From contig NZ_MUHW01000025.1 of assembly GCF_002007235.1 (NCBI RefSeq), positions 5,460 through 29,459 of the forward strand: a stretch of 24,000 nucleotides of DNA. Direction: 5' to 3'. Below, in pieces: positions 5,369-23,473 of this stretch (position 1 is its first letter; each line of letters opens with the position of its first letter). Origin of the DNA: Oribacterium sp. C9. GTDB lineage: Bacteria > Bacillota > Clostridia > Lachnospirales > Lachnospiraceae. The translations under genes and the position numbers were made by a program. Below the pieces are notes generated by a model. It did not search any database. It was not told where the DNA came from and saw nothing but the letters and a program-made list of their open reading frames with translations.

Positions 5369-6187
5369 TTAAAGAAGCAGCTTTAATCCCATGACAAAGA
5401 GCAGTACATAGCTCATTATCATAAATGTTCTCTGGCTCATCCTCTTATAAAGCATGGAGCCTATCTTAAGTCCCGAGAACAGGAACGGTGCTGCCACAAG
5501 TGCACTGAAAACCAGTGCAAGGTTCCAGTAGCCCGACCTGATGTCATCTACAAGCACCATACCGTTCAGAAATATCCATACTGTGGAAATCGTCGTTCTG
5601 AACTGGTTCTTATCCGGCAGCTTCTTCGTCAGATAACTGATGAGCAGTGGTCCTCCGCTGACAAAAATCCCATGTACAATACCGGCTACCGGAAGGAGCA
5701 GATACAGAAGCCTGTCCCTGAGATTTCCTTTTTCAGGATCCCCGGAGGTTTCCTCCCCTGCCTTTACATCCCCTGTGAAAGCAACAGCCTTTTTGTCTCC
5801 TTCTTTCTTACCGGCCCCGCTGTGCATCAGTTCCTTATACAGTCCATGAACAGAGACACATATAACGAAGATGCCCAAAGCGAGATACAGCATTTTCTCC
5901 CTGCCGAAGAGCTGATCCTTGATGAGGATACCAATGAGTATCCCGCATCCCATGATCACAACTATCTTCCAAAGTTCTTTCCAGACCACATGTTTTCTGT
6001 TTCCCAAAAACACATATATGCCGCTCGCTATACCAAGCACATTCAATATAGGCTTAGCCACCGCATATCCCACAAGCATAAGCCCGAAGGGCATGGCCAG
6101 CACAGTTCCTGCGAAGCCTGTGACTCCATGCATGATGTGAGTCAGAAAAATGGCCAGAAAGAATAAAATGTAATTTGTACTTAACAT
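5369..6187 (-). CDS. TauE/SafE (DUF81) family anion exporter; predicted sulfite or organosulfonate exporter
   Basis: 272-aa membrane protein built from two 4-TM halves separated by a charged loop (GAGKKEGDKK...). The N-terminus (THIMHGVTGFAGTVLAMPF) is typical of TauE/SafE. It starts 6 nt after the sulfoquinovosidase stop. Confidence 0.7.
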   Translation of the reverse strand: MLSTNYILFFLAIFLTHIMHGVTGFAGTVLAMPFGLMLVGYAVAKPILNVLGIASGIYVFLGNRKHVVWKELWKIVVIMGCGILIGILIKDQLFGREKMLYLALGIFVICVSVHGLYKELMHSGAGKKEGDKKAVAFTGDVKAGEETSGDPEKGNLRDRLLYLLLPVAGIVHGIFVSGGPLLISYLTKKLPDKNQFRTTISTVWIFLNGMVLVDDIRSGYWNLALVFSALVAAPFLFSGLKIGSMLYKRMSQRTFMIMSYVLLFVMGLKLLL

Positions 6188-8194: not shown

Positions 8195-8195
8195 G

Positions 8196-8873
8196 TCAAT
8201 AATGAAGCTCCTTATTTGGTCCGATGACTCCTGTGACTGCTCCCTGCTTCACCAGAGGTTCTCTCTCAGGATGACAGATCACCCATTTGTTTCTCTGGAG
8301 AAGAAGTTCGCTTTCCTTGTCTACAGGTGAAAGCTTTTCAAGAGGTGTGTTGGTTCCCTTAGGCAGGATAACAACTCCCTTGAATCCTTCATCAGTCACT
8401 CTGCATGGTGAAAGGTGAAGAGTTGTCTCATACATCTCTATCACTGTGCCCTTCGGTACGAAAAATACCTGCACATCATTTATGTCGTAAGTATTGTCCT
8501 TTATGTCCCAGACATGACCGAGGCAGAGCATGAAGTCTGTTATGGCAATGTTTATCTCGCTGCCCTTGTGATACTCGAAACCGTTGTAGGTGGTATTTCT
8601 TCCGTTGCAGTATCCGATCTCTATCGGCATACCTCCGTAGATCAGGTTTTCAACCTTATCCTTTACAGAAAGGCTCTCCATCTCGAGAACAGATGCCACA
8701 TAGACATTGCCCTGCTCCGGAATGGGAGTTTCCTTTTCCATGTAATCCACAACTTCTGAAAAATCGTATCCTGTGACTACACGTCCGTAGGTCTTGAAGG
8801 CTTCATGATCAAGGACTGACTTGATGGTAACGTCATTAACTTCATTTAAATGCTTTAAAAGCTCCATGATCAC
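8196..8873 (-). CDS. Small cupin-like protein, probably DUF4867 family; candidate SQ/sulfofructose isomerase or accessory protein of sulfo-TAL clusters
   Basis: 225-aa ORF. Its start overlaps the upstream reductase stop by 4 nt (ATGA), and its stop is 1 nt from the yihQ start, so it is tightly translationally coupled within the operon. The beta-rich sequence (GFEYHKGSEINIAI...VFFVPKGTVIEMYETTLHLSPC) looks cupin-like. The family name is recalled, not searched. Confidence 0.55.
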   Translation of the reverse strand: MIMELLKHLNEVNDVTIKSVLDHEAFKTYGRVVTGYDFSEVVDYMEKETPIPEQGNVYVASVLEMESLSVKDKVENLIYGGMPIEIGYCNGRNTTYNGFEYHKGSEINIAITDFMLCLGHVWDIKDNTYDINDVQVFFVPKGTVIEMYETTLHLSPCRVTDEGFKGVVILPKGTNTPLEKLSPVDKESELLLQRNKWVICHPEREPLVKQGAVTGVIGPNKELHY

Positions 8874-9733
8874 ACCTTTTCAGCTCTAACGACCTTAATG
8901 GTTGCTGAGAAGTCTTCCTTTGCATATCCGGCTTCCATAGCCTTGTCGTAAACTCTTACTACGTTCATCTCGCCAGGCATCGGAAGTCCCTTCTCCTCTG
9001 CGAGCTTCTTGCAGATGTTCACATCCTTGTACATATTCTCAATTGAGAATGCTGTAGTGAAATCATTCTTCTCGATAACATCCTTCTTGCTGTCCAGATA
9101 GAAGTTCTGTCCGCCGCCGTAGGAAATAGCTGTTGCGAAGGTCTGGATGTCGATACCGCATACTGCAGCAAGATTTGAAACCTCATTTACGCCGTTCTGG
9201 ATCTGACCAACCAGAGCATTGTGAAGGATCTTCATGGTGATACCTGTTCCGTTCTCACCCATGCGGATGATGTTCTCGCCCATGTATGCAAGGATAGGAC
9301 GAACTGTATCGTAAAGCTCCTCATCACATCCAACATAGATTCCGAGCTTGCCTGCGATAGCCGCCGGCTTTGACTTAACAACAGGAGCATCTGCGAACTG
9401 AGCGCCTGTCTCCTTGACCATCTTTGCGATCTCAACTGATACGCTTGGATCGATGGTACTCATATCGATGCAGATCTTACCCTTGCCGAGCTTCGGAAGG
9501 ATCTGTGTATAAACTGATCTGGAATGCTCTGACTTCGGAACCATGGAAATGATCACATCCGCTTTCTCAGCGAGGTCAACATTGTCTGCAGCTGCAACTG
9601 CACCGAGCTTTACGAGCTCATCAACCTTTTCCTTTACCATGTCTGAGCAGTAAACTGTATCGTTATGCTTCTTGACTATATTTGCACACATTGACTCGCC
9701 CATGATTCCGAGTCCGATAAAACCAATCTTCAT
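8870..9733 (-). CDS. NAD(P)-dependent beta-hydroxyacid dehydrogenase family; predicted 3-sulfolactaldehyde reductase (YihU/SftR-like) producing DHPS
   Basis: The N-terminal Rossmann motif MKIGFIGLGIMG, the 287-aa length and the catalytic-region pattern (GAQFADAPV..SKPAA..G.L) place it in the 3-hydroxyisobutyrate/tartronate-semialdehyde reductase family. Substrate is inferred from operon context. Confidence 0.65.
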   Translation of the reverse strand: MKIGFIGLGIMGESMCANIVKKHNDTVYCSDMVKEKVDELVKLGAVAAADNVDLAEKADVIISMVPKSEHSRSVYTQILPKLGKGKICIDMSTIDPSVSVEIAKMVKETGAQFADAPVVKSKPAAIAGKLGIYVGCDEELYDTVRPILAYMGENIIRMGENGTGITMKILHNALVGQIQNGVNEVSNLAAVCGIDIQTFATAISYGGGQNFYLDSKKDVIEKNDFTTAFSIENMYKDVNICKKLAEEKGLPMPGEMNVVRVYDKAMEAGYAKEDFSATIKVVRAEKV

Positions 9734-9803
9734 TATCTTTTATCTCCATTCCTTAGTGCTCTCATGTGCAATGTCTACACAGAGCGCTTTTATCTGCTTT
9801 TTA

Positions 9804-10490
9804 TTACTCTGTCTTTGTGTTGTCCCATGCATCACAGAAGGTTCCGATACCCTGTGTTGTAAATGCGTGGTGCTGAGCACTCTTGTAGATCGCAAGACCA
9901 GCTGTGATGATGTCTGCACCTGCTACTGCACAGTCAACCATCTGCTTAGGTGAACGAAGAGCTGCACAAATGATCTGTGTCTTTCCGTAGAAGCCGTAGT
10001 TCTTGTAGATGTCAACGATGTCCTTGATGTACTGCTTGCAATCCTCACCGTTGTCCTCTTTCCATCCGATGAAAGGTGATACGAAAAGTGAACCGTTCTT
10101 TGCTGCGAAAATAGCCTGTGCAGGAGCAAATACAAGTGTAAGGTTTGTTCTGATGCCTTCCTTCTCAAGCTGTCTTGCTGCTGCTACACCAGCCTCTGTT
10201 GCAGGAATCTTGATGGCGAAGTTTGGAGAAACCTTTGCATACTTTCTTGCTTCAACTACCATATCCTCTGTCTTGTCAAGGTGTGGGTTGATCTCTATTG
10301 ATACAGGGAACTTGTCGATACCCTCAAGACCATTTTCCTTGATCCAGTTTGCGATATCAGTTATAGCTGTTACAAATGGCTTGCCACTGAGCATGATGTG
10401 CTTTGGATTTGTTGTTACACCATCGATGCCAAATGTCTTGTACGCATAATCAATCTCATCTAACTTTGCACTGTCTAAAAAGAACTTCAT
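9804..10490 (-). CDS. sftT: Class I transaldolase of the FSA/TalC subfamily; predicted 6-deoxy-6-sulfofructose transaldolase
   Basis: 228 aa. MKFFLDSAKLDEI...GVTTNPKHI and the Schiff-base lysine context FAIKIPAT align with E. coli FsaA/TalC (VKVPVT). A strong GGAGGAGG RBS is present. Substrate is inferred from the neighbouring sulfoquinovosidase and reductase. Confidence 0.75.
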   Translation of the reverse strand: MKFFLDSAKLDEIDYAYKTFGIDGVTTNPKHIMLSGKPFVTAITDIANWIKENGLEGIDKFPVSIEINPHLDKTEDMVVEARKYAKVSPNFAIKIPATEAGVAAARQLEKEGIRTNLTLVFAPAQAIFAAKNGSLFVSPFIGWKEDNGEDCKQYIKDIVDIYKNYGFYGKTQIICAALRSPKQMVDCAVAGADIITAGLAIYKSAQHHAFTTQGIGTFCDAWDNTKTE

Positions 10491-10560
10491 TACTTCCTCC
10501 TCCGGATGGGATATATAAATCTCATTCGCAATAATTAGTTAATTAATTTAATTAATTAGT

Positions 10561-10588
10561 ATTATAGTGTAGGTTGCACAATTGTAAA
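10561..10588 (-). promoter_or_regulatory. Sigma-A type promoter of the transaldolase-to-exporter operon
   Basis: On the minus strand there is a -35 TTTACA (10583-10588), a 16-nt spacer and a perfect -10 TATAAT (10561-10566). The predicted TSS is ~10553, about 60 nt before the ATG at 10490. Confidence 0.5.
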
Positions 10589-10728
10589 GAGCGTTTTCGA
10601 CCATAAATGCATCATAATTTTGTTTTTGTGAATTATATATCAATTAGCCTATTAATTTTATCCAAATTGCCCTCTTTTCACATTCCTGTTTTTGTGGTAA
10701 ATGCGGACAAGCACTTATAAAACCACAT

Positions 10729-10777
10729 AAAAAAGCTTCCACAGGCATCATCAGGATGCCGGCAGAAGCCTCTTTTT
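10729..10777 (-). terminator. Rho-independent terminator after the alcohol dehydrogenase gene (bidirectional in appearance)
   Basis: GCTTC..GGCATC (10735-10749) pairs with GATGCC..GAAGC (10755-10769): 6 + 5 bp with a 4x4 internal loop and a 5-nt loop. It is flanked by A6 (10729-10734, a U-tract on the minus transcript) and T5 (10773-10777). It starts 15 nt past the stop at 10784. Confidence 0.6.
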
Positions 10778-10783
10778 AAATTA

Positions 10784-11941
10784 TCAGATTGCCTTCTTAT
10801 AAAGCATGATGCAGTCCTTGAGTGTGGTCTGGCGAGGGTTTGCCATGATATTTGCCTGACCCTTCATGGCATCTTCAGCCATGGCATCGATCTTGTCCTC
10901 TGTTACACCTACATCAGAAAGCTTCTCAGGGATACCCAGCTGCCTGTTGAGTCTCTTTAACTCCTCCACCAGCATTTCAGGTCTGAAATTCACTACAGGT
11001 CCATTTTCCTCTCTGATGTATCTGTAGATCTTCTCGTACTTTCCGTCGTGGTCGGCGATTGCATTGAACTCAGCCACATAAGGAAGGAGGATAGCATTGG
11101 CAACACCGTGAGCTACATGGAAATGTCCGCTTACAGGGTGGCTTAAGGCGTGAACGTCGCCGAGTCTCGCCCATGCAAATGATATTCCCGCGAAATTTGA
11201 GCCGAGCATCATGGCACTGGCTGCCTCAGGATCCTTACGGTTTGCAGTGAAACGGCGGAGATTCTTGCCGATAAGCTCCATAGCCTTCTCTGCCATGGCA
11301 TCTGAGAAAGGTGTTGCGTTGTTTGAAACGTATGCCTCCATGGCATGAATGAGGGCATCGATACCACAGGATGCAGCAACGGATGCGGGAGCTGTCATGA
11401 TAAGCTCAGGATCGAGAACTGCAAACTTTGGGATCTGCTCATAGCTGAAAACAGACATCTTGAAGTTGGTAACTTCATCTGTGATAACAGCACTGGCTGT
11501 AACTTCGCTTCCTGTTCCGGCTGTTGTGGGTACTGCGATGATAGGTGTGATAGGGCCGGGAACCTTACCTGTACCTACGTACTGCTGGATCTCGCCACCG
11601 TATGTTGCAAGAACACCTACAGCCTTGGCAACATCCATAGGGCTTCCGCCGCCGAGAGCTATGATACTGCTGGCACCTGACTTTTTATACTGCTCTGTTG
11701 CGTCCTTAACACATGCAACTGTCGGGTTCGGCATAACATCGAGGAAAGCTGTGCACTTGATGCCGGATACCTCGATAAGATCCCTTACCTTCGCAACAAC
11801 ACCTATTCCTTCAAGTCCTCTGTCAGAAACCAGAAATACATGCTCTGACTTCATTTCGCCCTTTAAAAGCTCAGGAATCTCCTTGAGACTTCCTACACCG
11901 AATTTTATAGTCTGTGGAATTTTAAAACAAAAATCATTCAT
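10784..11941 (-). CDS. Iron-containing (group III) alcohol dehydrogenase, FucO/DhaT-like; predicted aldehyde/ketone reductase acting on the glycyl-radical-enzyme product
   Basis: 385 aa. It has the GGGSPMDVAK nucleotide-binding motif and metal-ligand His clusters (DALIHAME, HALSHPVSGHFHVAHG). GAAGGGG lies 7 nt before the ATG. Confidence 0.85.
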   Translation of the reverse strand: MNDFCFKIPQTIKFGVGSLKEIPELLKGEMKSEHVFLVSDRGLEGIGVVAKVRDLIEVSGIKCTAFLDVMPNPTVACVKDATEQYKKSGASSIIALGGGSPMDVAKAVGVLATYGGEIQQYVGTGKVPGPITPIIAVPTTAGTGSEVTASAVITDEVTNFKMSVFSYEQIPKFAVLDPELIMTAPASVAASCGIDALIHAMEAYVSNNATPFSDAMAEKAMELIGKNLRRFTANRKDPEAASAMMLGSNFAGISFAWARLGDVHALSHPVSGHFHVAHGVANAILLPYVAEFNAIADHDGKYEKIYRYIREENGPVVNFRPEMLVEELKRLNRQLGIPEKLSDVGVTEDKIDAMAEDAMKGQANIMANPRQTTLKDCIMLYKKAI

Positions 11942-12036
11942 AATTATACCCCTTCTCTATTATCCCCTTCTCATTAACCGTAAAGAGACCTGTTTTAAGT
12001 GACACATCCTGTGTCATATTATGACATAAGTGTCAT

Positions 12037-12082
12037 AAGTCTATCTCCCACTTGTGCTTGCACAAAAGTAGGAGATAGACTT
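12037..12082 (-). repeat. 46-nt near-perfect hairpin in the GRE-ADH intergenic region
   Basis: AAGTCTATCTCC (12037-12048) is the exact reverse complement of GGAGATAGACTT (12071-12082). The inner ACTTGTGC/GCACAAAAGT extends the stem with a 2-nt bulge. No U-tract follows on the transcribed strand. Confidence 0.5.
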
Positions 12083-12234
12083 CATGACACGCCACACATG
12101 GAGCATGGAAGGACGCTTTAGCGGCCTGGGAGTGCGGAATGTGGGAGAATCGTGAGAGCGCTCTGCGCGGAACGATTCTATGTCGACTTTTGACACTCAC
12201 GTCATATTATATTAAAAATCATATACCCGGCTAA

Positions 12235-14718
12235 TCAGAAACTAAGTTCAGTTCTCTGTATCAGATCCTTCTGGAGCGCCTTTCCGAGCTCTACAAAGTA
12301 CGCACTGTATCCGGCAACTCGCACCAGCATATCCTTGTAGTCTTCAGGATGCTTCTGAGCCGCCCTCATGGTGGCGGAGCTCATGATATTGAACTGTACA
12401 TGCATGGCTCCATGCTTTATGTACTGGTCGATAAATGCGATCATGTTGTCTCTTCCCTCTATTCCGGCAACTGCCTCCTGAGGGAATTTCATATTCATGA
12501 GAGTTCCGTTTCCCGCCTTGCTGTGATCAACCTTCGATACGGAATTTGTCAGGGCTGTCGGTCCCATCACATCATGGGAGCCTCCATCTGTGTGCACAGG
12601 TCCCATATTGTCGGAGATGGCCTCTCCCATCTTTCGGCCGTCAAGAGTTGCATTGGTCACCATACCCATGGCGACATTGGCATTGACAGAATATACTCCC
12701 GGATTGAACTGTCCGCCCTTTCTGTAGGTCTTTCTACCGCTGATATGACCTGTGTAACAATCGAACATGAACTTGAAAAGCTCATCTGCGTAATCATCGT
12801 CGTTACCGTAGTGATGAACCTTGGAACCGTTCACAAGAGCATACAGCATCTCATGTCCCTTCCAGTTGTCCTTTACAGCCTGAAGGAGCTCCGCGCCTGT
12901 CACCTTATGCTCGTCGAACATAAGCTGTTTGATAGTTGCCAGTGAATCGGTGCAGGTTCCGAGGCCGCTTGCCTGAGGACCGATACCGTTATACTTTGCG
13001 CCTCCCTCAGTAAGATCCTTTCCTGTGTCCATGCAGTTCTGGAAGAATGCCGATACATATGGAATCGGTTTTCTGTGCTCATGAGCCGCTTCGATGATAT
13101 TGAGACTTGAACACATCTGGTCGCACCAGTAGTCGAACTGCTTATCTATGCTTTTAAGAACCTCATCAAAGTTCTTATATGTCTCGAGGCTTCCGGTATC
13201 CGGTCCGAACTGCTCTTCGGAATCCAGGAACTTTCCTCCGTTGATGACCATTTCAAGCATCTTCGGGGTGTTTACATAAGCCGCATCATGCCATCCGTAC
13301 TCTGCTCCCGGAAGGTCAGGCTCAACGCATCCTACTACGCAGTAGTCTCTTGCTTCTTCGAGAGACATGCCCTTACCGAGCATTGCCTTTATGGCAGGTG
13401 CATCATTGAAAAGCTTTGGATGACCGAAGCCCGCACGTATACATTCAACGGTTTTTACCTTAAGCTCATAAGGTGTCTTTTCCGATAAACGAACACAGAT
13501 CCATGGAACCATCATCCTCGTATGCTCTGAAGCTTCCAGAACAAGAAAGGTAAGGTCGTTTGTGGCATCATTGCCATCCCTGTCGAGGCCGCCTATGGTG
13601 AGGCTTTCTCCTCCGAAGCCACGACCGTTTCTTACTGCGGTTGACCCCCAGTCCTTGAGCTTCGTCGGATTGTTAAGCTTCACGAACTGATCCTCAAGTA
13701 TCTCCAGAGCCTGCATCTTGGTGATCACACCGTCATCTATGTCAGCCTTATAGTACGGGTACAGCCATTGATCCATTCTTCCGTAGGATATGGAATGACC
13801 GTTACTTTCGATGGTGATAAGGGTCGTTGCAAAGTTAAAAAGCTGTACTGCCTGCCAGAAGGATCTCGCCGGACCTCCTGCGATCTGATGACAGTTAAAT
13901 GCCATCCTTTCAAGCTCTGCTTTCCTCTTTGTATCCTTTTCTTTTTCCGCATACTCTTCCGCAAGATCAGCATATCTTTCGATGTATGCCACCGATGCCG
14001 AAAGCTCTATGATCATGGCATCGTAAAAATCTCTCTTATCGGAGAACTCAGGGTCCTTCCTTGATAATGCTTCTCTCTTTTCCTTTGCCTCCGCAATAAG
14101 CCCGTTGAAACCCAGCTTCATGAGCTTTCCGTAATCTATGGCCAGATGTCCGGTGCCTGCGTAATGATATAGATTGGTCTGGAAGATCTTCTTCCCGGCT
14201 TCCGAGCCTTTGATCTGTTCGTCATCAAGACGCCCCTCTACTTCATCCGCAACGGTTCTGCCCTGCCACCACTTACAAAGCTCGATGGCCTCCTGCTTCT
14301 CCTCTTCACTTCTGAAATAGAACTGATCATGCTCTCTGTCTTCAAAAGGATGGTTTACTGCCTCATCAAGTATCCAGTTCACGGAAAATTCCGGATAGAT
14401 GGGTGACGCTTTCGTGGGAGCGGCATTATCACCCAATATAAGCTCCTGATCGTAGATATAGAGTGTCACATTTTCAAGGATGTGCTTAAAGGCATATGCA
14501 CACTGAAGCTTCGCAGGCGCTTTTGGATGTGCCTTGTAGGATTCCGTCACGAGACGAAGCCGCTCTATGTCTATCCAGTATTTTTTATCCAGAAATTCCT
14601 GCCTCAGATAGTTGATTCTCGGAAAGGGTGACCAGTCCTTGTGATGCACCTCATAACCCAGATGGCACTGATGATCAAAGGGTTCTGTCCCCTTTGCATT
14701 TGTATGATACTCCGTCAT
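12235..14718 (-). CDS. Glycyl radical enzyme of the dehydratase/eliminase (PFL2) class; by context a DHPS-converting enzyme (HpfG-type dehydratase or HpsG-type sulfolyase)
   Basis: The C-terminal glycyl-radical motif is MLVRVAGYSAYF (Gly codon at 12310-12312). The Cys loop is VVGCVEPDLPG, with a single Cys (13327-13329) followed by x-Glu as in glycerol dehydratase, CutC and IslA, not the CC pair of PFL. I set the start at ATG 14718 (MTEYHTNAKG) because AGGAGG lies 6 nt upstream; the track ORF extends to 14763. Confidence 0.9.
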   Translation of the reverse strand: MTEYHTNAKGTEPFDHQCHLGYEVHHKDWSPFPRINYLRQEFLDKKYWIDIERLRLVTESYKAHPKAPAKLQCAYAFKHILENVTLYIYDQELILGDNAAPTKASPIYPEFSVNWILDEAVNHPFEDREHDQFYFRSEEEKQEAIELCKWWQGRTVADEVEGRLDDEQIKGSEAGKKIFQTNLYHYAGTGHLAIDYGKLMKLGFNGLIAEAKEKREALSRKDPEFSDKRDFYDAMIIELSASVAYIERYADLAEEYAEKEKDTKRKAELERMAFNCHQIAGGPARSFWQAVQLFNFATTLITIESNGHSISYGRMDQWLYPYYKADIDDGVITKMQALEILEDQFVKLNNPTKLKDWGSTAVRNGRGFGGESLTIGGLDRDGNDATNDLTFLVLEASEHTRMMVPWICVRLSEKTPYELKVKTVECIRAGFGHPKLFNDAPAIKAMLGKGMSLEEARDYCVVGCVEPDLPGAEYGWHDAAYVNTPKMLEMVINGGKFLDSEEQFGPDTGSLETYKNFDEVLKSIDKQFDYWCDQMCSSLNIIEAAHEHRKPIPYVSAFFQNCMDTGKDLTEGGAKYNGIGPQASGLGTCTDSLATIKQLMFDEHKVTGAELLQAVKDNWKGHEMLYALVNGSKVHHYGNDDDYADELFKFMFDCYTGHISGRKTYRKGGQFNPGVYSVNANVAMGMVTNATLDGRKMGEAISDNMGPVHTDGGSHDVMGPTALTNSVSKVDHSKAGNGTLMNMKFPQEAVAGIEGRDNMIAFIDQYIKHGAMHVQFNIMSSATMRAAQKHPEDYKDMLVRVAGYSAYFVELGKALQKDLIQRTELSF

Positions 14719-14894
14719 ATATATCCTCCTGATGAAACGCCGGTCTTTGATATGGATAAGCAAAGCCGACGCTGCATATCTATATATGATGATGTAAAAG
14801 AGAAAAGTTGATCACGAAACATCAACTGAAGAAATACCATGTCCAACATCCTGCTGTGGATGCCGGACATGAACACAGAAGACTGTATCCGCCG

Positions 14895-15845
14895 TCACTT
14901 TCCGGTCCTGGTACCCACAAGACATTTAATGCCTCTCTCATTGAAGTATTCTGCTATCTTTTCCACCCGCCTCTGAAAACTCGGGCGGTTGAACTTCAGA
15001 TTTTTCATGGGATATTCCTGTCCCAAAGACTCATACTTCTCGATACCTAGGCGCATAAAGCTCAGAAGCTGCAGCACCTCTATGTTGTTGTTAAGTTCTT
15101 CCTTAATGAAATCCGCAGAAGCTTTTATATTCTCTTCATCATCATTTATATGTGGGATCACAGGGATGCGCAGTATGGTATCTATATTTTGTCCGGAAAG
15201 TTTTTTCAGATTCTCGCGAATCAGCTCATTGCCAACGCCGGTATATACGCGATGCTTGGTGCTGTTCATCAGTTTAAGATCAGAGATCACAAGGTCCGTA
15301 TAGGGAAGCACCTTTTCAACCTCGTTCCATGAAACGGAAAAAGTGGATTCCAAACAGGTATGAATGTTCTCCTCTTTACATCTCTTAAACAGCTCTCTTA
15401 CGAAATCTGCCTGAAGCAGAGGCTCTCCGCCGGAAACAGTCACTCCGCCTCCGGACTCTTCATAATAACCCTTGTCTCTCAGAATAATCTCCATGCATTC
15501 CTGAACCGACATCTTCTTTCCCCAGCTTCTTATGGCGTCCGAGGGACAATTATCCCCGCATACCATACATCCCTGGCAATCAGCTCTTTCAAGTCTCACA
15601 GGCTTGTTCCTGAAAAACTGCAGTACATTATCCTTCGGACAGACTGCCTTGCAGGCACCGCACTGCTTCAGTCCTATGCATTTTTTCTTATAAAGCCCCG
15701 GTTCTATTCCGGGCTTCTGACTCTCCGGATTGCTGCACCATCTGCACCTCAGTGGGCATCCCTTGAGAAAAAGCTCTGTCCTCATTCCCGGTCCGTCATG
15801 TATGGTAAATCTCTGAATATTAAAAACAATTCCTTCTGTACTCAA
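14895..15845 (-). CDS. Glycyl-radical-enzyme activating enzyme (radical SAM, with two auxiliary ferredoxin-like clusters)
   Basis: The N-terminus FNIQRFTIHDGPGMRTELFLKGCPLRCRWCSNPES carries CxxxCxxC. It is followed by CIGLKQCGACKAVCP and CQGCMVCGDNCP, and GGVTVSGGEPL is the SAM-binding motif. The start codon at 15845 is TTG with GGTGA 4 nt upstream. Confidence 0.9.
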   Translation of the reverse strand: MSTEGIVFNIQRFTIHDGPGMRTELFLKGCPLRCRWCSNPESQKPGIEPGLYKKKCIGLKQCGACKAVCPKDNVLQFFRNKPVRLERADCQGCMVCGDNCPSDAIRSWGKKMSVQECMEIILRDKGYYEESGGGVTVSGGEPLLQADFVRELFKRCKEENIHTCLESTFSVSWNEVEKVLPYTDLVISDLKLMNSTKHRVYTGVGNELIRENLKKLSGQNIDTILRIPVIPHINDDEENIKASADFIKEELNNNIEVLQLLSFMRLGIEKYESLGQEYPMKNLKFNRPSFQRRVEKIAEYFNERGIKCLVGTRTGK

Positions 15846-16136: not shown

Positions 16137-16273
16137 AAAAAACGGGCGGGGTTCCATTGAATGGCTGTGCCGTCAAAAACACACCCTTACAGCGGCCGTC
16201 TGCCGAGCCGTTTTTTGCCGAAGAGCTGTTTTCTGTGCAGACGCGCATATGTATGCGCACCCGCCCGTTTTTT
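16137..16273. ncRNA. 137-nt multi-helix structured element (candidate RT-associated ncRNA); strand not resolvable from sequence
   Basis: A perfect 14-bp closing stem pairs AAAAAACGGGCGGG (16137-16150) with CCCGCCCGTTTTTT (16260-16273), enclosing 109 nt. The enclosed region contains CGTCTGC/GCAGACG (16197-16203 / 16237-16243), the palindrome GCGCATA-TG-TATGCGC (16243-16258) and CCAT/ATGG (16154-16164). The element begins 35 nt after the RT stop codon. Confidence 0.4.
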
Positions 16274-16308: not shown

Positions 16309-17547
16309 CTATATCCTTTTATCATTCTCATCGATACCATGATAGAAGGCATGAACCAGTGTACGGTATCCCATTCTTTGCATAGTCTTATATCGGACCC
16401 TGTATTTGGAATCAGTTCTCTTGCCTCCGCTTCCGACATAGCGTATACATTCCTGACAGTAATTGTCAAGCTTACGGAGACTGTCACAACGAGTCAGTAT
16501 CCTGAAGGACCAGTCAACCCAGTTGAGCTCGTTGGTATCAAGTCCTCTTCCGAAAAAATACATATCTATCCTGTCTATCATTTTCTTCATGGTCTCTTCT
16601 CTGGACAAACCATACTTTTTTTGACACCTCACCAGCTTTCTGGCTTTGTGATTCATACGCCACATTATGGATTTCATAGAATGCTTTGATATATCATACT
16701 CTCGTCCTTCTATGGAAAAACCAAGAAGATCAAATTTCTCCCCGGGCATAAGTATATCTGTTTTATCTTCATTAAATGAAAGTCCTCTTTCTGAAAACAG
16801 ATCCTTAAGCTTTATGTATATCCCTTTGGCCTCCTCCTGAGACGATGAAAAAATCGCTATATCATCTGCATAGCGACAGTAATAATCGCATTCCTTCCTG
16901 ATAAGCATATCTACGTCTTTAAGGTAAACATTCTCAAAAAATGTGGTCAGGGGACATCCGCTAAGGGCTCCTGTAGAACCTTCCATGAGCCTGCCGTCAG
17001 CATAAAACCGTCCCCTCATCAAAAGTGTCCTTAAAAACCAGCAAAGATCCGGATCTGTATCTTTAAATAAAGCATCAAGCATATCCGCAAGAATACCGGG
17101 CTGAAGACTGTCTCCATAGCTTTTAATATCTGATTTCAGGACCCATTTGGTATTACACAGATCATTCTTTCTTATGTCATAAAATATTCTGGAAACATGC
17201 TTTCCGATTCTGAAAGAATAGACCGAATCTTCATAAATATCATCATAATCATGAAGCACAAAGGCCATGAGCTTCATGAGCATCTTCTCTTCAGCTAAAA
17301 AACGGTATATGGTCCTTTTTTTCTGGCTGCTTTTCTTTTTAAGTAAGGTCCTGTGAGGTATGGACAGAAAAAAATCACGGTTACAGAGACGTTTTATATC
17401 CGTTTTACATTTATCTGAAAGGATATACTCCTTTAATTCGGCAAGTTCTTCCGGGCTTATGTTATATGAACCTTCCTTTCTCAAAAGGAAAGCATCCCGA
17501 ACCTCGGGAGATAGCATTTTTTCAAAAACAGTTGCTGTATTATTCAT
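16309..17547 (-). CDS. Stand-alone reverse transcriptase (RNA-directed DNA polymerase), group-II-like/unclassified lineage, with no endonuclease or other fused domain
   Basis: 412 aa with RT motifs in order: KKKSSQKKRTIYRF (1), EEKMLMKLMAFVL (2), WVLKSDIKSYGDSL (A/3), GALSGCPLTTFFENVYL (B/4), YCRYADDIAIF (C/5, YADD at 16861-16872), LSFNEDKTDIL (D/6) and FDLLGFSI (E/7). A ~130-aa helical thumb/X-like tail follows (MIDRIDMYFFGRG...LRKLDNYCQECIRYV). Confidence 0.85.
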   Translation of the reverse strand: MNNTATVFEKMLSPEVRDAFLLRKEGSYNISPEELAELKEYILSDKCKTDIKRLCNRDFFLSIPHRTLLKKKSSQKKRTIYRFLAEEKMLMKLMAFVLHDYDDIYEDSVYSFRIGKHVSRIFYDIRKNDLCNTKWVLKSDIKSYGDSLQPGILADMLDALFKDTDPDLCWFLRTLLMRGRFYADGRLMEGSTGALSGCPLTTFFENVYLKDVDMLIRKECDYYCRYADDIAIFSSSQEEAKGIYIKLKDLFSERGLSFNEDKTDILMPGEKFDLLGFSIEGREYDISKHSMKSIMWRMNHKARKLVRCQKKYGLSREETMKKMIDRIDMYFFGRGLDTNELNWVDWSFRILTRCDSLRKLDNYCQECIRYVGSGGKRTDSKYRVRYKTMQRMGYRTLVHAFYHGIDENDKRI

Positions 17548-17675
17548 CTTTTCATGCCCCCTGAATAAACATGGAGTGCCGGTATAAACCGGCTCTAATA
17601 TACTACAACAGCTTATTTTTTACCATTTTATCATAGCCGGCTCATGCCGTAAAGATAGCCATCACAGGACGCAAC

Positions 17676-17684
17676 TGATATAAT
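17676..17684 (+). promoter_or_regulatory. Extended -10 promoter element for the ABC exporter operon
   Basis: TGATATAAT matches the TGnTATAAT extended -10 consensus exactly. The -35 region is weak. The predicted TSS at ~17691-17693 argues against the GTG 17694 start and for ATG 17724. Confidence 0.45.
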
Positions 17685-17723
17685 ACAAGGTAAGTGTATG
17701 GTTATTTTTTGAGGACATGTACC

Positions 17724-19913
17724 ATGAACATAAATATCCCTATAACGATACAGATGCATTCCGCCGAAAACGCAATTGCTGTGATAGCTTCCATGCTCGG
17801 GGCCTACGGAAGATTCGAGCCCCTTGAAAAGCTGCGCGAAAAAACAGTGGCTTCCAGAAACGGTTCCACTCCCGAACAGCTTTCGGATATGGCAGAGCAG
17901 TTCGGACTGGATACGGAAATTCTGAATATTTCAAAAGATGACATCTGTAAGCAGACTTTCCCACTGGTGGCCTTCTGGAAGAAAAGGTATTACTGCATAG
18001 TAAAAAAGATAGACGGAGAAAGGGTATATGTCATGGATCCTTCAAAGGGAAATGTATGCCTGCCTCTTTCATTTTTTAAAGACAGATTCTCCGGCATCAT
18101 GATAAGGATGGTTCCCGGTGACGGTTTTTTAAAAAGCGGAACCAGGCCCCGGATATTTAATATTATCTTCCGGCGCATGAAGGGAATGGAGGCCGTACTT
18201 ATAAAGGTCATCATCCTTAACATCCTCGCTGTGGTACTGAATCTTATCATGATCAACAGCCAGAGGATCCTGCTTGATATGGCATCAGATACAACAGGAG
18301 CTTCCGGATTTACTTCGCCCTTAAACCATCAGCTTATGATGAAGCTCCCGACCCCGCTCCAAAATACCTCAGGCCTTATTCTGGCCACGATGTATGTGTC
18401 TCTTGCCCTTCTTACCATTGTTAATGTTTTAAAAACTCTCTTCATCTTCAGATCAGCTTTTTTGAATGCTGCAAAATCTGAATCAGCCCTCTTTAAGAAG
18501 CTGTTTGCCCAGCCTCTTCAGTTTTTTGAGCAGTACAGCATCGGTGAGCTGATGCAGCGTATAGACACCAATAAGAATCTGAGCATGTCTCTCATCAGAA
18601 GCATAGTCCCAAGATTTCTGGATCTGCTGATGGTCTTGCTTTATGGTATTCAGATGTTCCTGTTTAACCCTGTGCTGGGCGTCCTCTGTCTTCTGGTGGA
18701 GATAATCTATCTTATACTGTCCGGTATCCTTCAGTCTGAGATCGCAAACCGGGCCAGAGTTCTAAGTACAAGTGCAAATTCCATGAACTCCGTCACCTTA
18801 AGCGGTCTTGGAAACATTGAAACCATCAAGGCCGGCGGTGTGGAAAGGGTCTTTTTTTCAAGATGGAACAAGGCACAGCGTCTTTACCGCGAAAGTCGTT
18901 TTGACAATATAAATATCAAACAGGCATCCACAGCTCTGAACGGATTCCGTTCCGTCTTTTCGCAGGGCATGATACTGTTTGCAGGCGCGTATTTCATCAT
19001 AAAGGGGAATTTCACTCTTGGAATGATGGCAGCACTTCAGTCAATTCTTGCAAACCTGAGAAAAAGCCTCTCAAACTGCGTTCAGACCGTAAACTCTCTT
19101 CAAAGCACCAGAACCAGCATAGAACGGGTCGAAGACATCGAAAACAGACACCTGAGAAATGAGATACCTCTTCATGAAAAGGAAGAACCGGTACAATTTC
19201 CCGGAAATCTGGAAGTAAAGAATATTGTATTCCGGTACAATGCCGGTGATCCTCCCGCCATTCAGGATGTATCTCTATCCGTAAAAAGCGGTGAGATCAT
19301 CGCTATCGTGGGAGAAAGCGGCTGCGGAAAGACGACTCTCCTTAAATGCATAGGAGACATGTATCAGCCCGAATCCGGAAGCATCCTATATTCGGGAAAA
19401 GAAAGAGCGGCCATTCCTGATGTGGTATTTCATTCATCTCTTGCAATGGTCAATCAGGAAGTAATGACGTTTCAGGATACCATCATGTCCAATATAACCC
19501 TATGGGATTCCACCATAGCAAATTATGACGTTATCATGGCCGCCAATGAGGCCCAGATCCATAAACGGATAATGAGGGATCGAGACGGATATTACGGGTC
19601 TGTTCTTGAAAACGGCAAAAATTTTTCAGGGGGAGAGCTCCAGAGGATGGACCTGGCAAGAGCTCTTGCAAAGGAACCCACTCTGCTCCTGCTGGATGAA
19701 TTCACATCATCCCTTGATGCTCTGACTGAAGAGAAGGTTTTTGAAGCTTTACGAAAAAAGGGCACCACCTGTATCATTTCGGCCCACAGACTTTCCACTG
19801 TTGCATCCTGTGACCGTATTTACTGCATGGAAAAGGGGCGAATTGTTGAAAGCGGAACTCATAATGAACTTATGGAGATGGACGGTCTTTATAAACGGCT
19901 GGTCAATGCTTAG
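17724..19913 (+). CDS. ABC exporter (TMD-NBD) with an N-terminal catalytically inactive C39-peptidase-like domain
   Basis: The N-terminus IQMHSAENAIAVIASMLGAYG aligns to the C39 motif Q-x4-[DE]CG...YYG, with the Cys position occupied by Asn (17769-17771). FWKKRYYCIV stands in for the His-containing strand (His to Tyr, 17988-17990). Six TM segments follow. The NBD has Walker A GESGCGKTT, signature FSGGELQRM, Walker B LLLLDEFTSSLD and H-loop SAHRLST. The start is set at ATG 17724 with GAGGA 8 nt upstream. Confidence 0.85.
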   Translation: MNINIPITIQMHSAENAIAVIASMLGAYGRFEPLEKLREKTVASRNGSTPEQLSDMAEQFGLDTEILNISKDDICKQTFPLVAFWKKRYYCIVKKIDGERVYVMDPSKGNVCLPLSFFKDRFSGIMIRMVPGDGFLKSGTRPRIFNIIFRRMKGMEAVLIKVIILNILAVVLNLIMINSQRILLDMASDTTGASGFTSPLNHQLMMKLPTPLQNTSGLILATMYVSLALLTIVNVLKTLFIFRSAFLNAAKSESALFKKLFAQPLQFFEQYSIGELMQRIDTNKNLSMSLIRSIVPRFLDLLMVLLYGIQMFLFNPVLGVLCLLVEIIYLILSGILQSEIANRARVLSTSANSMNSVTLSGLGNIETIKAGGVERVFFSRWNKAQRLYRESRFDNINIKQASTALNGFRSVFSQGMILFAGAYFIIKGNFTLGMMAALQSILANLRKSLSNCVQTVNSLQSTRTSIERVEDIENRHLRNEIPLHEKEEPVQFPGNLEVKNIVFRYNAGDPPAIQDVSLSVKSGEIIAIVGESGCGKTTLLKCIGDMYQPESGSILYSGKERAAIPDVVFHSSLAMVNQEVMTFQDTIMSNITLWDSTIANYDVIMAANEAQIHKRIMRDRDGYYGSVLENGKNFSGGELQRMDLARALAKEPTLLLLDEFTSSLDALTEEKVFEALRKKGTTCIISAHRLSTVASCDRIYCMEKGRIVESGTHNELMEMDGLYKRLVNA

Positions 19914-19918
19914 AAGCT

Positions 19919-22090
19919 ATGGGAATATTCAGTAATCTTATTATTCAAAGAGACGAAAGAGACAGAGACGCGGAGCATAAGGCAGATCTCAATATGACAA
20001 ATCATCTGGAGACTTCCGGCGCCGATTCTCTTTCTGCTGCCCAAAATATCATCCACTATATCCTAAACAGATACAATATCAGCGCAAAAGCAGTTTACGG
20101 ATGTGACACTCTGGAGGATATGATGGATCTTATTCTTGATCCTCTGGGAATGATGTATGATGAAGCAGATCTTAAAGATCCTTCTTGGAAAAAAAGAAAC
20201 GATCTAATGCTGGGGTTTTTATGTGACGGTACAGCCATTGCCCTGATACCTGGCATTTTCGGCTACAAATTCATCAGTTCAAAGGACGGAAAAAAACATC
20301 TTGTGACAAATAAGACACCGCTGAAGCAAAAGGCCTATGCGATCTACCGACCTCTTCCCAGTGAGAAGCTTAGTCTCTGGCACCTCCTTATATATATGCT
20401 TCATATACTGTCTCCCAGAGATTATATTCTGGTGATGACAGCAAGTATAGCTGTCACCCTCCTCGGACTGGTGATCCCGAAAATGAATGCCCTTGTTCTT
20501 AAAGAGGTTGTTCCCAAAGGTTCAGAAGGAATCCCTCTTTTGATTGAACTTGCACTCCTTTTTTCTTTGTCAGGATGCATAAGAAGCGCCATATCTGCCA
20601 TAAAAGGAATCCTTTTGGGAAGAACCAGAGAACGAATCGCAGGCCAGACTCAGGCCGCCGTTATGGCAAGGCTCCTTCTCCTGTCCCAAAGCTACTTTAC
20701 AAAATATTCAACGGGTAATCTCGCAAAGCAGATAAGCAACACAAGGAGGCTTTGTGACCAGATTACAGGATTTGTACTGGATTCTCTTTTTACCGCTATT
20801 TTCTCTGTGGCCTATATATTCCAGATGCAGGATTTTTCGGCGGTACTGGCATTGCCGGCCCTCACCGTTCTTTTTATACGCTGCATTCTGTCCTTTATTA
20901 TAGCCTTATACGAAGCAGGTAACGACAGGAACACACTTGCTGCAGAAACGGAATCGGATTCCTTTTTATATACAGCCATAAAAGGAGTGCAGACTGTAAA
21001 GGGAAACGGTGCGGAAAGGCGTCTTTATGCCAACTGGGTCAGACGCTACAGCAAAGTTTTAAAGTATGATCTGGACAAGCCCGTGATCTTAAAGCTGGAA
21101 GACGTCATAACCGACCTTGTTTCTTCCGTAGGAACGGTGATTCTGATCTCTATGGTGATACCCTTTGGAATCGATGTCACTGACTATCTTGCTTTTATCA
21201 ATGCTTATGGTCTGATAGTTACCGCATGCTCATCTCTTATGGAATCCTTTGAAAAAATCATACTCATGAAACCCATGGCGGAAACTCTTTCAGATCTCAT
21301 GAAGGAGCACATAGAGTGTGTAGAGGGAGGAACCTACCTTAGAAATGTCCGGGGAGAGCTAAGGATCGAAAACCTTTCTTTCTCCTATGAAGGCACCGGC
21401 AGAAGCTGCCTTAAGGATATTTCCTTCGGAGTAAAAAAGGGCGAAAAAGTTGCGATAGTAGGGGAGAGCGGGTGCGGAAAAAGCACTCTTTTAAAGCTCA
21501 TACTCGGCGCTCTCAGACCTGATGGCGGAGGAATCTATATCGACGGAAATGAACTCAGTACCATAAACCTGAGATCCTACAGAAAACACGTGGGCTCTGT
21601 ATTTCAGTTCAGCAGTCTCATGCCGGGCACCATATATTCCAATATCGCCTTTGGTCCCGTACCGGTTTCGAGGGACACTGCTGTGGAGGCTGCCCAAAAA
21701 GCGGATATTCTGGATTATATAAACACCTTGCAGATGGGACTGGATACAGAAATTTCAGAATCCGGATCCAAAGGTTTCTCAGGCGGACAAAGGCAGCGTA
21801 TCCTTCTGGCAAGAGCATTTGCTTCCCATCCCAGCATTCTCCTACTGGATGAAGCAACTTCGGCTCTTGATAATGTCTCTCAGTCAAAGGTCCTCGAGTC
21901 CGTATATAAGGAAAAATGTACGGTCGTTATGGTTGCCCACAGACTTTCAACGGTGAAGAAGTGCGACCGCATCATCATGCTTGATGACGGGACAGTCATC
22001 GAACATGGAACTTACGACGAACTCATCAAAAAGAACGGCGCCTTCGCAAATCTTGTCAGAAGACAGCAGATGTCAGCATGGTCAGACTAA
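19919..22090 (+). CDS. ABC exporter (TMD-NBD) partner subunit with a ~160-aa N-terminal domain of unknown function
   Basis: It starts 5 nt after the stop of the previous gene. It has Walker A GESGCGKST, signature FSGGQRQRILLARA, Walker B ILLLDEATSALD and H-loop VAHRLST. The N-terminal domain has no C39 motifs. The paired layout resembles the bacteriocin-type 'peptidase/ATP-binding + ATP-binding' ABC pairs. Confidence 0.85.
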   Translation: MGIFSNLIIQRDERDRDAEHKADLNMTNHLETSGADSLSAAQNIIHYILNRYNISAKAVYGCDTLEDMMDLILDPLGMMYDEADLKDPSWKKRNDLMLGFLCDGTAIALIPGIFGYKFISSKDGKKHLVTNKTPLKQKAYAIYRPLPSEKLSLWHLLIYMLHILSPRDYILVMTASIAVTLLGLVIPKMNALVLKEVVPKGSEGIPLLIELALLFSLSGCIRSAISAIKGILLGRTRERIAGQTQAAVMARLLLLSQSYFTKYSTGNLAKQISNTRRLCDQITGFVLDSLFTAIFSVAYIFQMQDFSAVLALPALTVLFIRCILSFIIALYEAGNDRNTLAAETESDSFLYTAIKGVQTVKGNGAERRLYANWVRRYSKVLKYDLDKPVILKLEDVITDLVSSVGTVILISMVIPFGIDVTDYLAFINAYGLIVTACSSLMESFEKIILMKPMAETLSDLMKEHIECVEGGTYLRNVRGELRIENLSFSYEGTGRSCLKDISFGVKKGEKVAIVGESGCGKSTLLKLILGALRPDGGGIYIDGNELSTINLRSYRKHVGSVFQFSSLMPGTIYSNIAFGPVPVSRDTAVEAAQKADILDYINTLQMGLDTEISESGSKGFSGGQRQRILLARAFASHPSILLLDEATSALDNVSQSKVLESVYKEKCTVVMVAHRLSTVKKCDRIIMLDDGTVIEHGTYDELIKKNGAFANLVRRQQMSAWSD

Positions 22091-22150: not shown

Positions 22151-23332
22151 TCATAACTTCTTCATCAGCTGGTATCTGCTATTCACATGGAACTTTTCGT
22201 AGATATTCTCAACGTGCTTCTTTACAGTGTGGTAACTAATGACCATAGAGGCCGCTATCTCCTTATAGGTATATCCCCTGACCATGAGGCGGGCCACCTT
22301 CTGTTCTGTTTTTGTAAGAGCACTGAGACTGGCGATTCCGGCATCCATGGCTACATCTGCCTGTGAGGCAGACTCATGAGTTTCCTTATGTATGGTGATC
22401 CAGTGATAGAGATCCACTATACCGTTTGAATAACTCTGTCTGTAATCGTGTATGGTGTAAATATAATTCTTTATGGTCCTGTTATGTACTTCGCTGTGGT
22501 CTCCTTCGGAAACTCCAAGAAGGAAAGGAAGCCAGTTACACGGGGTATCAGAGTCAATGCTTCCGAGATTCCCCCCCATCAGCTCTTCAAGTCTTCTCAT
22601 AGCCTCACTGCTGTGATCAAGTATATGCATGAAGTCATCGGTTATAAGATATGCCTTCTCTCCCGAAGCGATGATTTCCCCCTGTATCTTCGAGATGATC
22701 TTTACCTGTTCGTACTTCTTGAAATTCTTGTAAGCCGTGGCTATATAAGAATATATATCCCGGAGATGTTCCACATCTTTGTCGCTAAAGTCTCCCTCTT
22801 CCTCATCCCTCAGGAATACCAGCTGAATGTAGGCATTGATACCGAAGGCCATGGTGAGGCTGTAATGGGCCCCGAAATACTTTTCAAGAAAACCAACATG
22901 GGCTGAATTCTTATAGTCCAAAACGATGTCTGTTCCACGATACAGTCTCGGTTCAATATCAAAGTAGGTGAGATGATCATTTACAGCATCTTCATATATT
23001 TTTTGTCTCACTATATCTTCAGGTTCAAAATACCTATATGGATGGCTATCCCCTTCTATGTCTTTATCTTCATAAGCCGCACTTTTGTCCTGCATGCTCC
23101 CGTCAAGTCTCGAACCTCTGTTTATATTTGAAATATTGCCCTCGATCTTTTCAGTCTGGGAAAGGAACTTTCCATGGGTATCGAAATACATGATCACGAC
23201 CTTGGAAAGCCCGAAATTTCTCTCGAGAGACTCAAGCATAAAGGGATTGAAAAATTCCTGAGATCCGGTCTGGTGCTGTTCCATATCCATGAAAAAATTC
23301 TTTTGTCCCGATTCATAGCTGTTTGTAGTCAT
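22151..23332 (-). CDS. LuxR/GerE-family transcriptional regulator with a large unassigned N-terminal domain
   Basis: The C-terminus LTKTEQKVARLMVRGYTYKEIAASMVISYHTVKKHVENIYEKFHVNSRYQL is a canonical LuxR-type HTH. The first ~325 aa carry no motif I recognise. I prefer ATG 23332 (AAGGAG 11 nt upstream) over the GTG at 23344, which abuts the RBS. Confidence 0.75.
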   Translation of the reverse strand: MTTNSYESGQKNFFMDMEQHQTGSQEFFNPFMLESLERNFGLSKVVIMYFDTHGKFLSQTEKIEGNISNINRGSRLDGSMQDKSAAYEDKDIEGDSHPYRYFEPEDIVRQKIYEDAVNDHLTYFDIEPRLYRGTDIVLDYKNSAHVGFLEKYFGAHYSLTMAFGINAYIQLVFLRDEEEGDFSDKDVEHLRDIYSYIATAYKNFKKYEQVKIISKIQGEIIASGEKAYLITDDFMHILDHSSEAMRRLEELMGGNLGSIDSDTPCNWLPFLLGVSEGDHSEVHNRTIKNYIYTIHDYRQSYSNGIVDLYHWITIHKETHESASQADVAMDAGIASLSALTKTEQKVARLMVRGYTYKEIAASMVISYHTVKKHVENIYEKFHVNSRYQLMKKL

Positions 23333-23473
23333 GTCGAAAATCACTCCTTAATATCTATACGCTTTAAAATACAGCGCATCCTTATAGTAGCATAAAATCA
23401 GAAAATACCTTATCGATAAATACAATCAGAAAAAGCGCATCCGTTAAGAGACGCTTGCCCCAATGTCACAACC

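Follow-up and report, generated by a model that had tools for sequence, protein, structure and literature searches.

In a 24,000-nucleotide (nt) stretch of DNA from Oribacterium sp. C9 (hereafter the window), we found that a reverse transcriptase (RT) gene belongs to a divergent subclade of the UG26 group and is accompanied by a conserved structured noncoding RNA (ncRNA), which is a diverged RT-5 RNA, and by an adjoining pair of ATP-binding cassette (ABC) exporter genes, ABC1 and ABC2. UG26, a catalogued Class 2 UG/Abi group, has never been characterized, and its relatives DRT2, DRT9, and DRT10 each showed a new mode of DNA making. By analogy with these relatives, we consider it reasonably probable that the RT and the ncRNA form a complex making RNA-templated DNA, with the exporter pair as its partner and probably with a role in phage defense or abortive infection. 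The original prediction had described the gene as a stand-alone RT, possibly of an undescribed kind, and as a singleton wedged between a metabolic island and an exporter operon. The class is not undescribed, as the RT matches the catalogued UG26 group over its full length and the RNA is a diverged form of a known family. "Stand-alone" is wrong as well, because a conserved ncRNA follows the RT and the exporter pair adjoins it in 12 of 13 informative lineages; both travel with the RT, the pair in this subclade, and the exporter operon taken for an unrelated neighbor is a conserved partner. What the original prediction had proposed as its nearest comparison, a compact RT of the UG/DRT type with an adjacent ncRNA, is supported by the UG26 profile match and the conserved ncRNA.

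Within the searchable literature, the pairing of UG26 with RT-5, the permuted position of the RNA in this subclade, and the tie to an exporter with a dead peptidase appear to be new. The pairing provides a concrete RNA with a covariation-supported pseudoknot as a candidate template, and a bacteriocin-type exporter with an inactivated peptidase is a partner type of which that literature gives no example in any RT system. Moreover, the cultured rumen isolate Lachnospiraceae bacterium JC7 (~98% identical) carries the same module, so the system is directly testable.

Assignment of the RT to UG26

The RT gene encodes 412 amino acids (aa), of which residues 70-279 match the Pfam domain RVT_1 (E 1e-17) and include GALSGCPLTTFFENVYL at 193-209, the catalytic YADD at 226-229, and LLGFSI at 274-279; the strings GALSGCPLTTFFENVYL and LLGFSI are conserved family features of its relatives. 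Since RVT_1 begins at residue 70, the ~70-aa N-terminal extension that had been predicted is real, and the Pfam scan of the RT detected nothing beyond RVT_1, in line with the predicted lack of an effector fusion. An AlphaFold2 model with 32 homologues as input reached a pLDDT of 89.8 and could be superposed in its entirety on the GsI-IIC group II intron RT (Foldseek TM 0.72-0.74), indicating that the protein has fingers, palm, and thumb as well as a helical domain at its C terminus. The model also superposed on G2L4, these being the best whole-protein structural matches (together TM 0.69-0.74 at 14-17% identity), and more weakly on DRT9 (TM 0.62) and DRT2 (TM 0.58). The open reading frame (ORF), the RVT_1 match, and the superposition on GsI-IIC thus agree on the intact RT with YADD and a thumb-like helical tail that had been read from the sequence.

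Comparison with contig ALYD01000013.1 of JC7, which is similar to the window DNA and not the same sequence, shows that the two RT genes differ at 10 nucleotides and 2 amino acids, a divergence of 0.8% compared to 2-2.9% in the neighboring genes, suggesting that the RT gene is maintained by purifying selection. The catalytic (Y/F)ADD is intact in 15 of 16 lineages checked; the motif scan did not locate it in the RT of L014 (L-numbers denote the metagenome and homologue loci compared). Judged from its motifs, the RT is catalytically intact.

Classification with RT-specific profiles, which had been called for in the original prediction, places the RT in UG26. The PADLOC profile RT_UG26 matches it with 333 bits (E 4e-100), aligning residues 7-404 to profile positions 3-395 of 398, while the runner-up groups, UG27 (90 bits), UG17 (82 bits), and UG4, range from 76 to 90 bits. 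The protein also has the UG26 layout of an RT domain only, with ~400 aa, no fused effector domain, and a YxDD motif, and its RNA belongs to the same family as that of canonical members (see below). UG26 was defined as a Class 2 UG/Abi group of 35 members, for which no ncRNA was reported (Mestre et al. 2022, PMC9226505). Canonical UG26 proteins are ~30% identical to the window RT and score 488-517 bits on the UG26 profile, compared to 271-342 bits (~150-250 bits lower) for the clade of the window RT, which is why we place the latter in a divergent subclade. This clade, for which a small neighbor-joining (NJ) tree was made using a pair of canonical UG26 proteins as the outgroup, may deserve subgroup status of its own.

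A profile search of 1.84 billion representatives retrieved 449 RT clusters at E values up to 1e-30, and a word-indexed search retrieved 46 close relatives of the RT, nearly all from rumen or gut metagenomes. When the window RT alone was used as the query against genome contigs, the JC7 locus was the sole match. No family member was found among the plasmids of PLSDB or the phages of INPHARED, and IMG/VR gave one weak match. Some UG26-like RTs (P0103, P0173, P0166, P0207, and P0217) are joined to a radical SAM domain, BspA-type leucine-rich repeats, or a second RT of group II intron type; these joins may be gene-calling run-ons instead of true fusions.

The original prediction had also set this RT apart from those of group II introns, retrons, diversity-generating retroelements (DGRs), and CRISPR systems, and profile, Rfam, repeat, and array searches bear this out. 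Rfam searches gave no RNA family of group II introns or retrons, either at the gathering score or at E values up to 10, and no maturase GIIM domain was found in the RT with Pfam. A group II intron identity was rejected on the lack of a ribozyme and of GIIM and on the best NCBIfam match of the RT, group II intron RT/maturase TIGR04416, which reaches 98 bits against a cutoff of 300. A retron identity was rejected in the same way, with the St85 model at 41.5 bits against a cutoff of 235, no retron RNA family, and a downstream RNA of different architecture. The NCBIfam models Drt2-5 are all far under their cutoffs. A DGR was rejected as no template/variable repeat pair occurs in the 24 kb, where the sole direct repeats are two chance-level pairs of 30-34 nt, and a CRISPR-associated RT was rejected as no CRISPR-like array was found in the window and no cas gene was found among the ten flanking ORFs scanned with Pfam. 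One could still ask whether the ORF is what is left of a decaying group II intron or retron RT that no longer functions, as both its best NCBIfam match and its nearest solved fold point to group II introns. We give this reading next to no credence, since that match is far under its cutoff whereas the UG26 match is full length, no ribozyme, msr/msd, or GIIM domain was found, and the related lineages checked retain an intact ORF and catalytic motif, with signs of purifying selection.

A structured RNA related to RT-5

The 3' structured element noted in the original prediction is real and strongly conserved, and it turns out to be the key partner RNA. It starts 40 nt past the RT stop on the RT-coding strand, at the head of a 463-nt spacer, and folds with a z-score of -3.84; none of 200 shuffles folds as well. 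Its helices and pseudoknot are listed in Table 1, and a further small helix, P6, is weakly supported. A covariance model (R1) was built from 16 aligned core-clade copies and then run on all loci, scoring 130 bits for the window copy and 93-142 bits for the core-clade copies. Full-length copies were found in each core-clade lineage with flanks, L017 excepted. On the reverse strand R1 scores 15-18 bits compared to ~130, and many G-U pairs fit the RT-coding strand only, so we assign the ncRNA to that strand.

In a joint alignment of 25 sequences, 92.6% of the cells form standard pairs, compared to 40-51% when the strands are slid by 1-3 columns. Compensatory changes occur in 36 of 42 pairs, with a covariation score reached by no shuffle. 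The alignment was fitted to the nested helices and favors them, so that independent evidence comes from the slid controls and from the pseudoknot, which is absent from the R1 model. The pseudoknot pairs in 98.6% of the cells, with compensatory changes at three of its six pairs (G-C/A-U, U-A/C-G, and C-G/U-A), and the copy in L101 adds a fourth (U-A to C-G). Tandem copies, diverged with their structure intact, occur in L025 (two, at 1427-1559 and 1599-1732), L008 (two, at 1592-1720 and 1844-1972), and L024 (at least two, including 3367-3501 and 3547-3589).

The RT-5 model of Rfam (RF03026) matches the window ncRNA with 25.3 bits (E 0.04 on 2 kb), under its gathering score of 45.7, and no core-clade locus reaches that score. 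At canonical UG26 loci, RT-5 scores 50-82 bits, above the gathering score, and R1 finds copies of 14-42 bits immediately upstream of the RT; the two models coincide in L048, L047, L052, L059, L049, L055, and L044, with R1 E values of 2e-7 to 3e-3. Because R1, built from the clade only, recovers true RT-5 instances upstream of canonical UG26 genes, we regard the window ncRNA as a diverged RT-5. The two share a GCGYCUGC 5' segment, a P5 hairpin with a UUGCAGRC loop, a long P4, and an adjacent RT gene, but the window RNA differs in its sub-gathering score, its strong G+C-rich P1, its short P6, and its position after the RT gene instead of before it. RT-5 was described as one of the "RT motifs" that lie near RT genes, without an assigned function (Weinberg et al. 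2017, PMC5737381). By these sequence comparisons, UG26 is the RT family accompanied by RT-5 RNA, a link that we did not find stated in the searchable literature.

Across the UG26 family, the ncRNA accompanies the RT. Canonical members have it 5' of the gene, but it is found 3' or elsewhere in the module in the window subclade, which is set apart further by the exporter pair as a constant neighbor. In related lineages with 3' sequence it directly follows the RT stop. It is detached from the RT in L012, where the sole copy sits immediately upstream of ABC1, and in L101, where it lies past ABC2 on the opposite strand. An upstream ncRNA of the DRT2/DRT9 type was also considered for the clade and rejected, since the regions upstream of the RT are unrelated between lineages and often just 10-40 nt long.

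The position of the RNA raises the question of whether it is a cis-regulator of RT or ABC expression, such as a terminator, attenuator, or leader, instead of a template or scaffold for the RT. In the window, P1 and the following U-run resemble an intrinsic terminator, and in L006, L025, and L012 the element lies within 30-80 nt upstream of ABC1. However, the pseudoknot and five further covarying helices far exceed what a terminator needs, and the U-run, present in JC7-like lineages and those with 66-70% identity, is not universal, since a longer P1 extension takes its place in L014, L024/25, and L008. Neither the canonical RNAs, which precede an RT with no ABC genes there, nor the L101 copy, on the opposite strand and downstream of ABC2, fit such a regulator, and the same is true of the tandem duplicates in L008, L024, and L025. 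Moreover, Class 2 relatives employ RNAs of the same size as templates. We therefore see a slim chance for cis-regulation and continue with the ncRNA as a component of the RT system.

Linkage to an exporter with an inactivated peptidase domain

Comparing the neighborhoods of homologues, as the original prediction had also proposed, we examined homologous RTs on longer contigs and 79 metagenome loci. The ABC pair is the sole gene family besides the RT that is common to the RT loci, and the 12 of 13 informative lineages in which it adjoins the RT span RT identities of 32-84%; L008 and L024/29 are cut by contig ends. The two elements are arranged divergently in the window and JC7, L002, and L019; convergently in L018, L020, L022, L021/L026, L012, and L014; and in tandem in L006, L025, and L101, with the RT stop overlapping the ABC1 start (TTGA) in L101. 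Other than the ABC pair, the flanks are unrelated between lineages. Thus, the association of the RT with the exporter, as read from gene order, is strong but not obligatory in either direction.

ABC1 has the Pfam domains Peptidase_C39, ABC_membrane, and ABC_tran and is accompanied by ABC2 throughout. The best NCBIfam matches are NHLM_micro_ABC1 for ABC1 (561 bits, cutoff 853) and NHLM_micro_ABC2 for ABC2 (507 bits, cutoff 709), and in PADLOC the two proteins gave generic ATPase matches only. The pair thus resembles NHLP/class II lanthipeptide exporters (TIGR03796/TIGR03797) in its best family matches and its two-gene layout, but it scores under both cutoffs, has the catalytic residues of C39 replaced, and has an RT and an RNA nearby in place of precursor and maturase genes. 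In every copy of the ABC1 subfamily the catalytic Cys of C39 is changed to Asn and the His to Tyr, by which we take the peptidase domain to be inactivated. A paralogous exporter pair in L022 retains the canonical C39 residues.

The ABC1 subfamily is small, with ~27 cluster representatives at 43% identity or more followed by a gap to 33%, and is about as rare as the RT clade. Four look-ups that started from ABC1 gave one further RT-linked locus (L101/102), two LanM lanthipeptide clusters with precursors of 73-74 aa and GG leaders that have neither RT nor RNA (L098 and L099), and one exporter pair alone (L103). The pairs of the LanM clusters are 49-51% identical to the ABC1/ABC2 pair. In NJ trees, LanM-linked pairs nest within RT-linked pairs, and the RT tree agrees broadly with the ABC tree. 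In the LanM clusters themselves (L098, 3951-11342; L099, 562-8585), the precursors have a GG-type leader (…VNGG), and since both catalytic residues, Cys and His, are missing from the exporter C39, some other factor must cleave off the leader.

In lineages with 66-70% identity, the gene directly upstream of the RT encodes a Cys-rich protein of 384 aa without a Pfam family. It is found in L019 (4719-5873, between ABC1 and the RT), L018 (996-2150), and L021 (816-1970), is absent from the window, and is present in L002 as a 3' fragment (5698-5991). For canonical UG26 loci, we looked for a common protein partner and rejected the candidates (clusters c4, c6, and others) for want of informative domains and of consistency.

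Between the RT and ABC1 of the window, promoter-like sites lie at 17653-17625 (minus) and 17656-17684 (plus), the number of such sites being below chance expectation. The leader hairpin of the original prediction (17578-17593) does exist in the 5' untranslated region of the RT, with 6 bp and a 4-nt loop, but comparison does not support it as a conserved element. It is common to the near-identical JC7 only and was rejected as such, and the overall region shows no unusual degree of structure (z -1.29).

Table 1. Coordinates of the RT, its RNA, and the exporter genes in the window
Feature	Position	Strand	Remarks
U-run after P1	16135..16141	minus	With P1 resembles intrinsic terminator of RT-RNA transcript; read from sequence
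Conserved structured ncRNA, diverged RT-5	16142..16268	minus	~127 nt; covariance model R1, 130 bits
ncRNA helix P1	16268-16260 with 16150-16142	minus	9-bp G+C-rich closing stem
ncRNA helix P2	16258-16254 with 16247-16243	minus	
Pseudoknot 5' strand GUCUGC	16237..16242	minus	Pairs with P5 loop
ncRNA helix P4	16232-16217 with 16193-16176	minus	
ncRNA A-rich linker	16216-16210	minus	Single strand between P4 and P5/pseudoknot
ncRNA helix P5	16209-16206 with 16197-16194	minus	8-nt loop
Pseudoknot 3' strand GCAGAC	16198..16203	minus	Within 8-nt P5 loop
Reverse transcriptase	16309..17547	minus	412 aa, ATG start; divergent UG26 subclade; ORF, PADLOC RT_UG26, RVT_1
Divergent control region between RT and ABC1	17548..17723		Sigma-70-like sites on both strands and RT 5' untranslated region hairpin
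ABC1, probable partner	17724..19913	plus	ABC exporter with C39-like N-terminal domain; likely ATG 17724, mechanical ORF from GTG 17694
ABC2, probable partner	19919..22090	plus	Second half-transporter of heterodimeric exporter; Pfam

Proposed function and further features of the window

Class 2 UG RTs use ncRNA templates of ~130 nt in iterative reverse transcription (bioRxiv 10.1101/2025.10.16.682844). DRT2, DRT9, and DRT10 bind adjacent ncRNAs of ~130-190 nt and recopy a short internal template, two of them from a protein primer. By analogy, the window RT would bind its ncRNA as both scaffold and template and would make RNA-templated DNA, probably repetitive and from a short template, and possibly protein-primed. 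The A-rich linker is, speculatively, a candidate template, in a layout that recalls a boundary helix, template, and pseudoknot. The ABC pair could then act downstream as effector, sensor, or exporter, in parallel with the SLATT membrane protein that DRT10 requires as its third component (bioRxiv 10.1101/2025.10.16.682844). The role would most likely be phage defense or abortive infection, which is the weakest step of the proposal.

One parallel is with DRT10, which consists of a UG17 RT, a 137-nt ncRNA, and SLATT (bioRxiv 10.1101/2025.10.16.682844). The window system likewise combines a Class 2 UG RT with an ncRNA of similar size in a three-part layout with membrane partners, but its partner is an ABC exporter pair instead of SLATT, and for the window system a homologous RNA architecture and pseudoknot, as well as tandem-repeat synthesis, serine priming, and defense, are at most candidate features. 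DRT9 (UG28) and DRT2 (UG2) are also compact Class 2 RTs with an adjacent structured ncRNA, to which the sequence relation is weak. The poly-U template tract of DRT9 was not recognized in the window RNA. A DRT2-like never-ending ORF over the whole RNA was rejected, as RNA length varies without regard to multiples of three and most homologues have stop codons in every circular frame.

A defense role is plausible because variable effectors of a kind typical of defense systems occur in the family, as PLD-like/ZacB-like fusions and a Vsr-like neighbor. The UG26-like RTs P0179, P0203, P0221, and P0184, which are 730-890 aa long, begin with a PLD-like domain scoring 80-115 bits on the ZacB profile of PADLOC; by sequence, this part may be an effector fusion and may hint at a defense role for part of the UG26-like family. 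A Vsr-like endonuclease adjoins 9 of 35 UG26 genes (Mestre et al. 2022, PMC9226505).

A number of observations weigh against the three-part defense proposal, some of them concerning the exporter and others concerning defense. As to the former, the RT of L017 (6001-7218; 56% identity, FADD, intact) has no RNA and no ABC pair within 5-6 kb; this RT ends 12 nt before a Dus gene. Members of the ABC subfamily are also present at three loci that have no RT, two of them LanM clusters and one a pair alone, so the pair has an RT-independent job. All loci are from rumen or gut Clostridia with shared descent, which inflates the apparent count of independent observations. These points favor a different reading, in which the RT and the RNA are a self-contained two-part system and the ABC pair is a long-lived syntenic neighbor with its own peptide export. 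Such a reading would also explain why, at canonical UG26 loci, the RT and its RNA occur with neither an ABC pair nor another consistent partner, and the pair is possibly missing in L008 as well. On the other hand, 12 lineages with RT identities as low as 32% have kept the adjacency through three orientation classes and full neighbor turnover, the RT gene of L101 overlaps the start of ABC1 with its stop, and the RNA of L012 and of L101, which flanks the ABC genes and not the RT, is still within the block. We consider the two-part reading unlikely, though with a real chance of being correct, and retain the exporter pair as the probable partner of the RT and RNA.

As to defense, the neighbors across loci are metabolic or housekeeping genes or the exporter pair, without defense islands, and neither defense-island context nor enrichment of defense genes was seen in the neighborhoods examined. 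To our knowledge, membrane ABC exporters do not serve as effectors of RT systems. No experimental work or later paper on UG26 was found in the searchable literature, and the defense prediction for the group was "inconclusive" (Mestre et al. 2022, PMC9226505).

The lack of a defense-island context is also compatible with a non-defense role, in which the RT and RNA supply the bacteriocin-type exporter or govern it, e.g., by generating or licensing its cargo, from the position that precursor and LanM genes hold in related clusters. The gene orders match, with precursor(s), LanM, ABC1, and ABC2 in LanM clusters and RT, (RNA), ABC1, and ABC2 in tandem RT loci, and no RT locus has a homologue of LanM or of a lanthipeptide precursor. 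The sister groups UG4 and UG27 are thought to be non-defense too (Mestre et al. 2022, PMC9226505). However, such a role is without precedent, a DRT2-like endless ORF across the whole RNA is excluded, and DNA or a protein of 47 kDa is unlikely to pass through an exporter made for unfolded peptides, so that we regard this role as highly improbable. A related and bolder idea, which we also rate as quite unlikely, is that the RT, the RT-5-like RNA, and the dead-peptidase exporter constitute one machine, in which the RT product or an RT-DNA conjugate gates the exporter or yields its cargo. If true, Class 2 UG RTs would have in this machine a new output branch, possibly outside phage defense, in which the RT and RNA took the place of the precursor and LanM genes of related clusters.

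Several other features of the window were recorded. A Clostridiales-1 RNA (RF01699, 111 bits) lies at 12022-12185 (plus), within a segment of ~274 nt (11963-12236) that is absent from JC7, the JC7 contig being otherwise ~91-98% identical around it; this suggests that the segment is a mobile or recently inserted element. A second Clostridiales-1 copy (94 bits) was found directly upstream of a UG26-clade RT in L008 (10-180, minus). A link between this RNA and the RT was rejected, as it lies near 2 of ~14 core-clade loci, too few to tell from chance.

The "metabolic island" (6194-15845, minus) encodes a GH31 glycosidase, a DUF4867 protein, a transaldolase-family protein, an NAD-dependent dehydrogenase, an Fe-alcohol dehydrogenase, and a glycyl-radical enzyme with its activase, which together look like a sulfoquinovose/sulfonate-type pathway. 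Between the activase and the glycyl-radical enzyme, the window has an insertion of ~94 nt compared to JC7 (14758-14851), with TGGAT duplicated at its edges. Because this insertion displaces the JC7-type start, the glycyl-radical enzyme probably starts at a downstream ATG (MTEYHT...). Finally, converging on ABC2, a gene at 22151-23344 (minus) encodes a 397-aa protein with a C-terminal LuxR/GerE helix-turn-helix and an N-terminal part without assignment, which among the RT loci is present in the window and JC7 only.

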